Notes under the pieces: generated by a model | What the model saw: only the letters and a program-made list of their open reading frames with translations | Told to the model about the DNA's origin: nothing | Databases searched by the model: none | Made by a program: the position numbers and the translations under genes | Source: an uncultured bacterium | GTDB taxonomy: Bacteria > Bdellovibrionota > JACOXK01 > 2-02-FULL-40-11 | Reading direction: 5' to 3' | Assembly (NCBI GenBank): GCA_964371555.1 | Contig: CAYJMQ010000002.1 | Location: forward strand, 5,521-69,520 | DNA: 64,000 bases | In this document: positions 3,667 through 59,825 of the stretch, one piece after another | Position numbering within the stretch: the first letter of the stretch is position 1 | Layout: each line of letters starts with the position of its first letter

Positions 3667-4599
3667 ATGAACTGTCTCGTCACAGGGGGAGCTGGATTTA
3701 TCGGATCTCACATTGTTCATGCCCTGCTTAAAAGGGGGGAGAACGTTGTCTTAATAGACAATTTTGAGACAGGCAAAAGGGAGAATCTGCTCCCCTTTCA
3801 AGGAAAAACGGAGATCATTGAAGGGGATATCCTCGATAAAGGGCTCCTTAAAGAAGCAATGAAAGGGATAGAGGTGGTGTTTCATCAGGCGGCGCTCAAA
3901 TTAGTCCCCGAATCGTTCGGAAAACCAGATCGTTATAATGATGTGAATATTCAGGGGACACTTTATCTTTTAGAAGCGGCCAAACGGGAAGGGATTCGAA
4001 AATTTGTCTATGCCTCATCGAGCTCGGTCTACGGAGACAATGAAAAACTTCCCAAATGCGAATCTGATCTGACCTCGCCTATTTCCCCCTACGCAGTGGC
4101 AAAGCTTGCGGCCGAACATTATTGTCAGGTTTTTACCAAAAATCATGAACTTCCGACAGTCTCTCTTCGATATTTTAATGTCTTTGGCCCCAGACAAACA
4201 GTCAATGATGGCTATTCCAATGTGATTCCTAAATTTATCAGCTGTTTTTTAAACAATAAACCGCTTCCGATCTATGGAGACGGCAGACAATCACGCGATT
4301 TTACTTACATTGACAATGTGGTGAATGCCAATTTGTTGGCTGCGGAAAAGCGGGATGTGACAGGCGTTTTTAACGTGGGGATGGGAGAACGCCATGATCT
4401 TTTAACGATTATTGAGATTTTGAAAAAGATTTTTAATCGAAAGCCGGAGATCCAGTATCTGCCGCCGCAAAAGGGGGATGTCAGACAGACGCTCGCTTCT
4501 GTTGAGTCTATTGAAAGGGAGTTGGGTTATCGATCGGTCCTCTCATTTGAGGAAGGGCTCCGAAAAACGGTTGATTGGTTTACTTCAATTCCAAAATGA
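3667..4599 (+). CDS. NAD-dependent epimerase/dehydratase (UDP-hexose 4-epimerase family)
   Basis: N-terminal Rossmann VTGGAGFIGSH, catalytic YAVAK (YxxxK), SSSSVYG; typical extended SDR. Confidence 0.8.
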   Translation: MNCLVTGGAGFIGSHIVHALLKRGENVVLIDNFETGKRENLLPFQGKTEIIEGDILDKGLLKEAMKGIEVVFHQAALKLVPESFGKPDRYNDVNIQGTLYLLEAAKREGIRKFVYASSSSVYGDNEKLPKCESDLTSPISPYAVAKLAAEHYCQVFTKNHELPTVSLRYFNVFGPRQTVNDGYSNVIPKFISCFLNNKPLPIYGDGRQSRDFTYIDNVVNANLLAAEKRDVTGVFNVGMGERHDLLTIIEILKKIFNRKPEIQYLPPQKGDVRQTLASVESIERELGYRSVLSFEEGLRKTVDWFTSIPK

Positions 4600-56451: not shown

Positions 56452-57473
56452 TGTCTGATTTTTTTACGATTCAATGGCGGGTCGACCATCTCTTGATGAT
56501 CGATCAGAGAAAACTCCCGCACGAAGAAATCTACTTAAAGTGTGACAACTATGACGATGTTTCCGAAGCTATTCAAAAGATGGTCATTCGCGGCGCCCCG
56601 GCCATTGGGGTTGCGGCTGGCATGGGGGTTGCTCTCGGCGTAAAAAAATCGAAGGCAAAAAATCGCCCCGATTTTCAAAAAGAATTTCTTAAAATTTATG
56701 ACACCCTTTACCTGTCCCGTCCTACGGCTATCAACCTCCGCTGGGCGCTCGATCGTATGAAGGCCTCATTTGACGAATCTCTTTCTCAAGGGATCCCAAA
56801 GACCAAAGAGCGTCTCGAGAGAGAAGCCCTGAAAATCTATGAAGAAGACATTCAAATCAACCAGGCGATGGCCAATCATGGCGAGCCGCTGATTAAGGAA
56901 GGGTTCCAGCTCTTGACCTATTGTAATACAGGAGCGCTTGCCACTGCGGGCTATGGAACAGCGCTGGGTGTGATCCGAAAGGCGCATCGGGGAGGGAAAA
57001 AAATTCATGTTTATGTTTCTGAGACGCGCCCCTATTTTCAGGGATTGAGACTTACCTCATGGGAATGTTGGAAAGAAGGGATCCCGCATACGGTCATTGC
57101 AGATAATATGGCGGCCTCGCTCATGTCTCAAAAAAAAATCGATGCTGTTTTTGTCGGCGCCGACCGCGTTGCCCGCAATGGCGATGTCGCAAACAAAATC
57201 GGGACTTATAATTTGGCAGTGCTTGCCAAACATCATCATATCCCTTTTTATGTCGTTGCCCCCGCTTCAACGATCGATCGAACATGTAAAACCGGAAGCG
57301 AGATACCCATTGAGGAAAGAGATCCCAAAGAAATCACGCATTTTAGAAATGAAGCGGTCGGTTTAGACAGCGTCTCAGTATATAATCCCGCCTTCGATGT
57401 CACCCCCCACACGCTGATTACCGCTATCATTACTGAAAAGGGAATCTTTCATCATCGTGTATGGCAGATGTGA
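56451..57473 (+). CDS. mtnA: S-methyl-5-thioribose-1-phosphate isomerase (eIF-2B alpha/beta/delta-like)
   Basis: RGAPAIGVAAG, VGADRVARNGDVANKIGTY motifs. Confidence 0.8.
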   Translation: MSDFFTIQWRVDHLLMIDQRKLPHEEIYLKCDNYDDVSEAIQKMVIRGAPAIGVAAGMGVALGVKKSKAKNRPDFQKEFLKIYDTLYLSRPTAINLRWALDRMKASFDESLSQGIPKTKERLEREALKIYEEDIQINQAMANHGEPLIKEGFQLLTYCNTGALATAGYGTALGVIRKAHRGGKKIHVYVSETRPYFQGLRLTSWECWKEGIPHTVIADNMAASLMSQKKIDAVFVGADRVARNGDVANKIGTYNLAVLAKHHHIPFYVVAPASTIDRTCKTGSEIPIEERDPKEITHFRNEAVGLDSVSVYNPAFDVTPHTLITAIITEKGIFHHRVWQM

Positions 57474-57586
57474 CAGCGCCCTCGCTGTGCAAAACCAAGA
57501 TAGATCACGCGTGGACATCATAGACTAAATTCCTCGGAGAGAGATGATTTGAATTGATTTAAAATGAAGAGTTGCAATTCTTTAAT

Positions 57587-57608
57587 CTAATGGTATTATT
57601 ACCATTAG
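57587..57608. promoter_or_regulatory. perfect inverted repeat ctaatggta-ttat-taccattag abutting the start codon of the 57609 ORF
   Basis: Seen directly in the sequence. Confidence 0.35.
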
Positions 57609-57914
57609 ATGCCTTCCGAACTTGTTTTTCATGAGAAGATCATATTGAAACATCGAGATCCAGAAAGACAAGGCATCTTTGAATTTGTTGTTTGGGAGGT
57701 AGAGAAATCGAAGGGTTACCCTGAAGGTTTGAAATATCGTGCTTGGCTTTCAGAAAGAGACGAGACCATCTTTGGTTTTGATAACCACAAACCCAAAGGC
57801 CCTCATCTACACATTGGGGAACAAGAGGTCGGATATGTATTCCGAGGACTTAAAGCTTTGAAAGAAGACATAATCGCTATGATTAAAAAGGAGGGATTTA
57901 TTTATGAAGACTAA
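57609..57914 (+). CDS. small conserved protein, putative toxin component of a two-gene cassette (resembles TumE/DUF6516-type proteins; assignment tentative)
   Basis: 101 aa; overlaps the downstream wHTH gene by 11 nt; preceded by a palindromic operator. Confidence 0.4.
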   Translation: MPSELVFHEKIILKHRDPERQGIFEFVVWEVEKSKGYPEGLKYRAWLSERDETIFGFDNHKPKGPHLHIGEQEVGYVFRGLKALKEDIIAMIKKEGFIYED

Positions 57915-58263
57915 AAGAGCATTTTTAATGGTGGAACCCACAAAGAAAGCATTTGATCGTGCATTTCGAGTTCTTTCACGCCCATCTAAGAAATACGCGG
58001 GAACAACGATTTTGAGCTTTCCCGATTATGAAACATTGGGGAAGGCTATTTCAGCAACACGAATAGAACTCCTAAATGTCATTCGTACTCAACGCCCAAG
58101 ATCGATTCAGCATTTAGCAAAACTTGTGAAAAGAGATTTCAAGAATGTTTATACAGATGTCAAATTTTTACAAGAATTTGGGCTTATTGATTTAGAAGAG
58201 CGCGGCGCCAGGCGTTCTTCTGTTCCTAAAACAAAATTTGAAGAATTTGTGCTGGCTGCATAA
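57904..58263 (+). CDS. winged-helix DNA-binding protein (HVO_A0114-like putative antitoxin/regulator)
   Basis: 119 aa; LSFPDYETLGKAISATRIELLNVIRTQRPRSIQHLAKLVKRDFKNVYTDVKFLQEFGLI HTH pattern. Confidence 0.45.
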   Translation: MKTKRAFLMVEPTKKAFDRAFRVLSRPSKKYAGTTILSFPDYETLGKAISATRIELLNVIRTQRPRSIQHLAKLVKRDFKNVYTDVKFLQEFGLIDLEERGARRSSVPKTKFEEFVLAA

Positions 58264-58439
58264 TCATTCTTGACAATATCTCCCCAGAGTCCTGTTCCAC
58301 CAGCTGCTCAAGAAGATAATTTCGAAATAACCGACATTCCTCCAGGGTCCCACATACGGGATCAGCTAAAGCATTGCCAGTGGAAAACAATCCAACAGAT
58401 GTGCTGAACGTTTAGGCAGTCTTCTCACTCACTCTATTT

Positions 58440-59825
58440 CTAAACACGATGGCGGATTTCAATAATGCATTTCTTTTCGGATAATTGATCGATGAGGTGG
58501 GAGAGTTCCTGTTGATTCGAATGATCGAGGTTGGAGTCCCATTCGTCCAATAACAAAATGTCTGTATTGACCTTTTCGCTCAGTTCCTTAAGCCGTGCTC
58601 TCAAGAGCTCCCCCGTGGATAAACCCTGAGCGCTTTCAAATTCGAGATGATGCTGGGCCGGTAAATAATAAGCTTTTTCTCCCCACTGATCTTTGAGCAG
58701 CATAAGGAGGGTCGATTTCCCGGAGCCGTTTTCTCCGCGGAGGGTGATTCTACCAGCCTTTGGAAGAGTGCGATGCATGTCATCGATGGATTTCAGTTCA
58801 GTAACCTTATCTTGAACGTGGAGTCTTAATTTGTTCCACTGAATGCGGGAAGCGAGATCAAAGATGGGTGTTGAGAAGATTGAGTTATGAAGACCTCGAA
58901 GTCGATTTTTGTGGGTGGTCCATTGTGAGAGAAGCCAGAGAATTTCGTGAGTAAACCCTAAGATCATAAACAGTCGCGGTAAAGTGACTACAAATGTTGA
59001 AAGCATCACCTTGTTATCCATATTTTGTACGAGTGAAGTGATAAGAATCACGATGGTCGGAAGCAGTGTCAACAGAGCAATGGCAATGGAGACACTTTGT
59101 CGAAATGTTTCTGAACGAATATTGTCTTTTTCGGCCCTGGAAAAATTTCTGAAGGTTTTATTCCACCAGAGCTTGAGGTTATAGATATTGCCAATGAGGA
59201 CATTGTCCCAGGCAGAGAGAAGGGATTGCCCAAGTTTGACTCGTGATTCCTGGGCCCGTGTCGCCAGCGCCCCCTGTTTTTTGCTTTGAAGCTTAAGAAG
59301 CAAAGCGACAAGAATGAGGCTTAGTCCATATCCTAGAACATACTTCGGTTCAACAACAAAAGAGAGCACCGTAATATTGAAGAGGACATTTAAGGCGCAT
59401 GAAGAGAGATCATAAAGATACCCTATAGAATCTGATAGTGTACTTTGCCCTTCAGAGGTGAGATAAGCAATTTTCTCTTCTCTCTCTTGCCGCTGACTCC
59501 ATGCTGATATCTGTTTTTGATTGAACTTGGTAAATTTTTCGATGAGATGGCCAAGACTTCTCTGTTTCCATTTTGCGGCAAAGATAAGAGCGATTCCCCC
59601 TGGTACATAGGGGAGAGTGAGCGATAGAAGATAAAGGCCAAGATTATTCCAAATCGGGTAATTCGCATGAATATCTTGTACGAGCCTTGCCAACCACACG
59701 GTGGAAGAAGCCACAATGATTTGTTGAATCAGAAGGCACAGAAAACAATAGAGCCCTTCTCGGCCCATTAAAATTTTATATATTCGAAACTGCATGGACC
59801 TTCTCATTTTTAAAATTTTGATCAA
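58440..59825 (-). CDS. ABC transporter, fused permease/ATP-binding protein (exporter type)
   Basis: Six TM N-terminal domain; Walker A GENGSGKST, signature LSTGE, Walker B ILLLDEWD. Confidence 0.75.
   Translation of the reverse strand: MIKILKMRRSMQFRIYKILMGREGLYCFLCLLIQQIIVASSTVWLARLVQDIHANYPIWNNLGLYLLSLTLPYVPGGIALIFAAKWKQRSLGHLIEKFTKFNQKQISAWSQRQEREEKIAYLTSEGQSTLSDSIGYLYDLSSCALNVLFNITVLSFVVEPKYVLGYGLSLILVALLLKLQSKKQGALATRAQESRVKLGQSLLSAWDNVLIGNIYNLKLWWNKTFRNFSRAEKDNIRSETFRQSVSIAIALLTLLPTIVILITSLVQNMDNKVMLSTFVVTLPRLFMILGFTHEILWLLSQWTTHKNRLRGLHNSIFSTPIFDLASRIQWNKLRLHVQDKVTELKSIDDMHRTLPKAGRITLRGENGSGKSTLLMLLKDQWGEKAYYLPAQHHLEFESAQGLSTGELLRARLKELSEKVNTDILLLDEWDSNLDHSNQQELSHLIDQLSEKKCIIEIRHRV

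Follow-up and report, generated by a model that had tools for sequence, protein, structure and literature searches.

Within the window (the whole 64,000-nt stretch of DNA analysed here), a two-gene cassette lies on the forward strand at positions 57569-58265, an extent that is given by the stretch common with its closest relative, locus L009. The cassette comprises a promoter/operator region followed by gene A (57609-57914, +), a tumE-like gene that starts with ATG and encodes a putative toxin of 101 aa, and gene B (57904-58263, +), which also starts with ATG and encodes a 119-aa winged-helix protein of HVO_A0114 type, a candidate for both antitoxin and autorepressor. The ORF coordinates bear out the two overlapping reading frames described in an earlier sequence-only reading of this DNA, with an overlap of 11 nt (57904-57914, +) and the TAA stop codon of A at 57912-57914. 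The upstream neighbour had likewise been correctly recognised as mtnA (TIGR00512 equivalog, 447 bits versus a cut-off of 279), and this gene ends at 57473. On the other side, in convergent orientation, lies a divergent ABC permease/ATPase-like ORF (58440-59825, −) of 461 aa with a TTG start, Walker A and B motifs, an LSTGE signature and an unusually compact nucleotide-binding domain, which stays under every Pfam and NCBIfam curated cut-off. No further copy of gene A or B is found in the 64-kb window, and neither tRNA genes nor Rfam families at the gathering threshold are found in positions 1-64000.

Both family guesses made from the letters agree with the Pfam searches. ORF A scores a modest 32.3 bits with the TumE family PF20126 (formerly DUF6516; cut-off 23.4, E = 1e-7) and aligns with profile positions 8-80 of 81, and ORF B matches the HVO_A0114 family PF25212 with 78 bits versus a cut-off of 27.6 (profile positions 6-82 of 84). 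The latter family is named after a gene of Haloferax volcanii pHV4. The homologues of A carry precomputed PF20126 matches and the source name 'DUF6516 family protein'. The NCBIfam search gives no match for A and, for B, only winged-helix matches that score far under the cut-offs, and in Pfam B matches no RHH or RelB-type family, only winged-helix families. Neither protein matches a well-characterised non-toxin-antitoxin (non-TA) family, and the earlier proposal of a TA or regulatory module stands in this respect.

A genome scan with one genome per GTDB species yields 32 related loci, almost all of them in Bdellovibrionota, Oligoflexia or Bacteriovoracaceae MAGs. Using tblastn, we observe a B homologue immediately 3′ of the A homologue in 32/32 loci, and the 11-nt A/B overlap is present in 20 of the 22 loci with an intact A. 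Several A and B matches share contigs of the same size and source (1571, 1355, 5092, 9588 and 119650 nt). Independent genomes show the gene pair, the 11-nt overlap and the preceding palindrome again, and none of the three is due to chance. For now, we regard the enrichment of the cassette among predatory Bdellovibrionota as a curiosity rather than a finding.

More distant pairs (24-37% identity) are found on plasmids of Acetobacter, Rhizobium, Brevundimonas and haloarchaea. Conservation of the two genes as neighbours, which the sequence-only reading had named as a check, extends to these replicons, with a 'DUF6516 family protein' gene directly 5′ of a winged helix-turn-helix (wHTH) gene on the same strand in 7/8 of the annotated alphaproteobacterial and haloarchaeal plasmid regions examined, and with all four downstream plasmid proteins that were checked against Pfam matching PF25212. 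The plasmid members of the HVO_A0114 family that were checked are mostly situated directly 3′ of a DUF6516 gene, as is the case here, and the window B protein, a member of a Bdellovibrionota clade, is 23-30% identical to the plasmid examples. Neighbours of the plasmid pairs include VapBC (VapC/Phd), an IS3 transposase and a recombinase. On the Halobacterium salinarum plasmid pKBTZ03_58 (L040, 1093-1488), we observe an HVO_A0114-type gene that has no annotated DUF6516 gene upstream and lies directly 3′ of an AbrB/PIN (VapBC-like) pair; this gene could be an orphan antitoxin, or its toxin could be an unlisted pseudogene.

Our literature search found one substantive source on TumE, Durairaj et al. 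2023 (Nature 622:646, PMC10584680), and found no paper on the HVO_A0114 family and none testing a toxin-first TumE with a winged-helix partner. The published work reports that six gammaproteobacterial DUF6516 proteins (Proteobacteria, subcluster 1a) halted the growth of E. coli and that the adjacent gene neutralised them, and that TumE of Allochromatium tepidum lowered 35S-methionine incorporation, meaning that translation was inhibited; an RNase activity of TumE is proposed, and is unproven even in the published members (PMC10584680). The label "uncharacterised" that the sequence-only reading had attached to the module does not hold at the level of the superfamily, which is already characterised, TumE-TumA having been validated experimentally in 2023 (PMC10584680). 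Both families are in Pfam, and 'DUF6516 family protein' is an NCBI name already in use. By Pfam criteria the cassette belongs to the TumE-TumA superfamily and, as far as its sequence tells, would work like it.

The comparison with the validated TumE-TumA pairs shows a common two-gene arrangement with a small partner, encountered in all 32 loci and in seven of the eight plasmid regions, as well as several differences. The antitoxin gene lies upstream in the validated pairs, and DUF6516 genes are mostly downstream of their partner (clusters 1, 2, 4 and 6; PMC10584680), whereas B lies downstream of A in all 32 loci. The validated antitoxins are RelB-like or short hypothetical proteins, the named partner families of DUF6516 being RelB-L, HP185, HP167 and HP181 (PMC10584680), whereas the partner here is a 119-aa HVO_A0114 winged-helix protein. 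The validated toxins belong to the gammaproteobacterial subcluster 1a, whereas the putative toxin here is shorter (101 aa) and lies outside that subcluster. A partner that is not of the RelB type does not exclude membership, since the superfamily admits 'diverse unrelated antitoxins' (PMC10584680).

With respect to transcription, the sole sigma-70-like site on the forward strand of positions 57300-58600 consists of a -35-like hexamer TTGCAA (57572-57577, +), a 16-nt spacer and TATTAT (57594-57599) with TG before it, forming an extended -10 element, TGgTATTAT (57591-57599, +). The promoter scan finds no second promoter-like site within A. The palindrome ctaatggta-ttat-taccattag (57587-57608), which had been described as ending at the first start codon, does adjoin the ATG of A at 57609, and it extends further to perfect 11-nt arms at 57585-57595 and 57600-57610, of which the right one takes in the AT of the ATG. 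Given the position of the TATTAT box, the -10 forms the centre of this conserved operator candidate, ATCTAATGGTA-ttat-TACCATTAGAT (57585-57610, unstranded), which occurs once in the 64-kb window even when up to three mismatches are allowed (0.01 expected by chance). At the level of sequence, a candidate operator over the cassette's own promoter is present, as in type II TA modules.

The same architecture is visible across 30 aligned loci, for which the consensus of the palindrome is CTrATGGTATA-N3-ACCATyAG. Its TGG and CCA are invariant in 30/30 loci at a fixed spacing, TG precedes the -10 in 30/30, the -10 matches at least four of six bases in 26/30, and a -35 matching at least four of six bases is found 16-18 nt upstream in 27/30. 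The mirrored position 9 is non-complementary in 17/30 loci, so that the palindrome looks like two protein half-sites and not like an RNA stem. A palindrome in this place could nevertheless act as an RNA hairpin, either as a terminator of mtnA or as a stem hiding the start codon of A, and it does fold at -15.4 kcal/mol (z-score of -4.8 versus shuffles) with a stem that includes the AU of the AUG. However, the stem is not followed by a run of T residues, and the palindrome accompanies the cassette in loci whose upstream genes are unrelated; on these two grounds the terminator reading is rejected. Furthermore, the TGG/CCA core is invariant instead of covarying, which together with the mismatches at position 9 fits base-specific protein contacts and not pairing, and the left arm would fall outside the mRNA if transcription starts from the -10 box within the palindrome. 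We consider an RNA hairpin as the main function of the palindrome very improbable; a minor role is conceivable on mtnA read-through transcripts, where the hairpin would conceal the start of A and B would continue to be produced.

The two genes differ in their translation signals. In 22/30 loci, gene A (start codon ATG or GTG) begins 8-12 nt rightward of the centre of the palindrome and 7-10 nt past the -10 hexamer, leaving no room for a Shine-Dalgarno sequence. In the window, the ATG of A begins 10 nt downstream of the -10 box, and no Shine-Dalgarno sequence precedes it. Since the start codon stands where transcription should begin, the promoter geometry indicates that the A message is probably leaderless or nearly so. 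The remaining 8 loci have a leader of 20-37 nt, with a GGAG-type Shine-Dalgarno sequence visible in several of them (L001-L003, L005). Gene B, on the other hand, is preceded by a Shine-Dalgarno sequence AGGAGGG (57889-57895, +), located within the K-E-G-F codons of A and 8 nt before the ATG of B, and an AGGAGG/AGGAAGG-like motif is seen in the same place in nearly all of 29 related loci.

The AF2 model of protein B, for which we find 33 homologues, has a pLDDT of 88.1; in it, residues 5-39 form a beta-alpha-beta segment and residues 42-117 a wHTH domain. Foldseek matches the wHTH (approximately residues 42-117) to ArsR (6j05), CzrA, PH1932 and MarR. B resembles the ArsR/SmtB and MarR proteins in the wHTH fold only and carries an extra N-terminal beta-alpha-beta segment; the ArsR model NF033788 gives B 16.9 bits versus a cut-off of 55, and there is no match to the ArsR metal site. 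The invariant residues R77, K80, N81, V82 and D85 are located in or beside helix 79-91, which in the model is taken to be the putative recognition helix, and their invariance parallels that of the operator core. Among distant homologues, the pattern of the N-terminal segment is conserved and its sequence is not, which would suit a partner-specific toxin-binding region.

The wHTH of B also draws weak PDB sequence matches to the C-terminal wHTH of Csa3, and the best PADLOC matches of B are the CasR, Csa3 and CARF3 models (E = 3e-7 to 1e-3). These matches raise the alternative of an anti-phage abortive-infection or defence module in which B is related to the CRISPR-associated Csa3/CasR regulators, and many type II TA modules do act in phage defence. 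The alignment is nevertheless confined to the C-terminal wHTH (B residues 33-103 versus profile positions 114-179 of 191). Csa3/CasR proteins combine an N-terminal CARF domain with a wHTH, whereas B, at 119 aa, has a short beta-alpha-beta N-terminus and no CARF domain, and we reject an assignment of B to the Csa3/CasR family. A has no PADLOC match, the neighbours are housekeeping genes and not a defence island, and tblastn against 50,697 phage records as well as a search of IMG/VR viral contigs gives no relative. Taken with the matches in its favour, this makes a dedicated defence module improbable.

For protein A we find 181 homologues, nearly all of 101 aa and 58-81% identical. Its AF2 model (pLDDT 92) has 6 strands and 1 helix, whereas the published TumE fold is described as alpha+beta, with helices packing against an antiparallel sheet (7 strands and 2 helices), and as having no relative in the PDB (PMC10584680). 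In a wider alignment (24-43% identity), the conserved positions Y43, D58, N59, K63, G64, H66, H68, E73, Y76, L84, D87 and F88 are located on strands 5 and 6 and where strand 4 ends, and according to the model they make up a plausible metal or catalytic cluster. The window gene is intact and keeps all of the family-wide conserved residues except F88, which is changed to I.

As judged from the alignments, the conservation of A is unusually strong for a toxin, which counts against a TA reading and in favour of a regulatory pair, in which B would be an ordinary wHTH autorepressor and A a non-toxic co-regulator (a ligand or metal sensor) or a benign enzyme. The His-rich motif of A could be a metal sensor acting with an ArsR-like wHTH, DeepFRI predictions for several TumE clusters are mostly DNA or transition-metal binding and not nuclease (PMC10584680 supplement), and the toxicity of the toxin-first class with wHTH partners is drawn from analogy. 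Against this stand the six tested members of A's Pfam family, all of which are toxic (PMC10584680), and the way in which the two genes decay. A is disrupted in 7/29 close loci, whereas B is full-length and stop-free in 29/29 (Fisher's exact, p = 0.010), a count that is based on MAGs and in which some defects may be assembly errors. The lesions are diverse and comprise a 24-aa in-frame deletion (L009), two stop codons (L013), a stop within the KPKGPHLH motif (L023), N-terminal stops (L026), a frameshift (L027), a stop with truncation (L028) and multiple lesions (L032); additionally, the A gene of L019 has no start codon. Loss of A first is what a TA module predicts, since the antitoxin cannot go while the toxin is active, and one-sided decay of A with an always intact B is unpredicted for a co-regulator. 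The L009 deletion (approximately position 4075; window 57684-57755) spans 72 nt, removes residues 27-50 and has GAA microhomology at its bounds, and the antitoxin gene beside the deleted toxin is intact and 95% identical.

The genomic context of the cassette is variable. Clustering of the flanking ORFs of the 32 loci and the window reveals no conserved neighbour besides A and B, and in a blastn comparison with L009 the identity of 94-97% is confined to 57569-57683 and 57753-58265 (the counterpart of window 57569-58265 being L009 3961-4585), with unrelated flanks. The shared stretch thus begins 3 nt upstream of the -35 box and ends 2 nt past the stop codon of B. GC content over the cassette is 0.37-0.40 versus 0.43-0.50 in the flanks. 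In L009, the cassette lies between a UDG-family gene and cutA. Our searches give no sign of an integrase, an IS element or flanking repeats, and the positions around 57569 and 58265, searched for terminal repeats and target-site duplications, show only short, chance-like repeats. From these comparisons, the 697-bp unit of promoter and two genes travels between genomes as a block, and the cassette is an autonomous, mobile unit in variable contexts, as are type II TA modules. Two MAGs hold two cassettes each, CAYYYP01 (L006 and L008) and PSRN01 (L016 and L030). A patchy, multi-copy distribution in variable contexts beside TA and mobile-element genes is typical of TA modules and, together with the toxicity of the tested relatives and the decay pattern, leaves the regulatory pair unlikely, if still worth bearing in mind. 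The flanks of L009 (UDG-family gene, NfeD, SPFH and CutA1) contain neither mobile-element genes nor flanking repeats. Upstream of the -35 box, at window positions of approximately 57492-57568, there is patchy similarity with L009 and L038 (CAAG-TA-ATCA, GACT, GATGAT).

We consider it likely that the locus is a chromosomal, toxin-first type II TumE cassette that is repressed by its own winged-helix antitoxin. In the mechanism that we propose, A, a minimal TumE/DUF6516 protein, would be the toxin and would arrest growth by blocking protein synthesis, by analogy with the Allochromatium TumE, possibly as a metal-dependent nuclease via its D58-N59...H66-x-H68...E73 cluster. B would bind and neutralise A, probably via its variable N-terminal beta-alpha-beta segment, and a B dimer would bind the palindrome ATCTAATGGTA-N4-TACCATTAGAT and block RNA polymerase, resulting in autorepression; B binding is expected to shut its own promoter, since the palindrome spans the predicted transcription start as well as the extended -10 box. 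Transcripts would start at, or within 0-3 nt of, the AUG of A, which would be translated leaderless and at a low rate, while the strong Shine-Dalgarno sequence inside A, together with translational coupling at the 11-nt overlap, would yield more B than A, keeping the antitoxin in excess. If the level of B falls, freed A would be expected to arrest growth through translation inhibition, as in a TumE of another subcluster.

HigBA, MqsRA and HicAB are toxin-first type II systems in which the second gene encodes a DNA-binding antitoxin and a palindromic operator lies over the promoter. The window cassette resembles these systems in gene order and in its promoter-overlapping palindrome, whereas the protein folds are unrelated. 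Several reverse-order TA systems use an extra antitoxin promoter. In comparison with HigBA, MqsRA and HicAB, the window cassette differs in that its putative toxin gene apparently starts without a leader and that it has a single promoter. The promoter-centred operator, the putative leaderless start of the toxin and the decay pattern are new details and not a new principle.

For annotation, two 'hypothetical' genes can be described as a putative TumE-family TA cassette with exact promoter, operator and ribosome-binding-site coordinates. With its 181 toxin homologues and 30 aligned operators, the family provides a compact and well-populated test case for the toxin-first, winged-helix TumE class, supplying candidate catalytic residues and a defined predicted operator. 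A minimal TumE of 101 aa with a confident model is also a convenient target for activity and structure work.

A broader possibility, which we put forward tentatively and hold to be somewhat less than even in probability, is that toxin-first TumE and HVO_A0114 pairs form an old TA class of Bacteria and Archaea with one control design. This design would combine an operator that straddles the core promoter (extended -10 or TATA-like TTTATT), a leaderless toxin, an antitoxin made from an internal ribosome-binding site and a metal-dependent toxin (D-N...H-x-H...E), with a fold for which there is no solved structure; our literature search found no description of any part of this design. On haloarchaeal plasmids we observe the palindromes CCTAACATT-TAT-TATGTTAGG and CCAACATATT-T-ATTATGTTGG (L034 1030-1130; L039 671-771), which lie approximately 20 nt 5′ of the DUF6516 start and are centred on a TATA-like TTTATT. 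These few TATA-centred examples, archaeal parallels to the operator centred on the -10 box, hint at a control design common to both domains. Within CAYYYP01, the operator half-sites of the two cassettes L006 and L008 are nearly identical (ATCTGATGG...CCATCAGAT), so that cross-regulation between the copies is possible.
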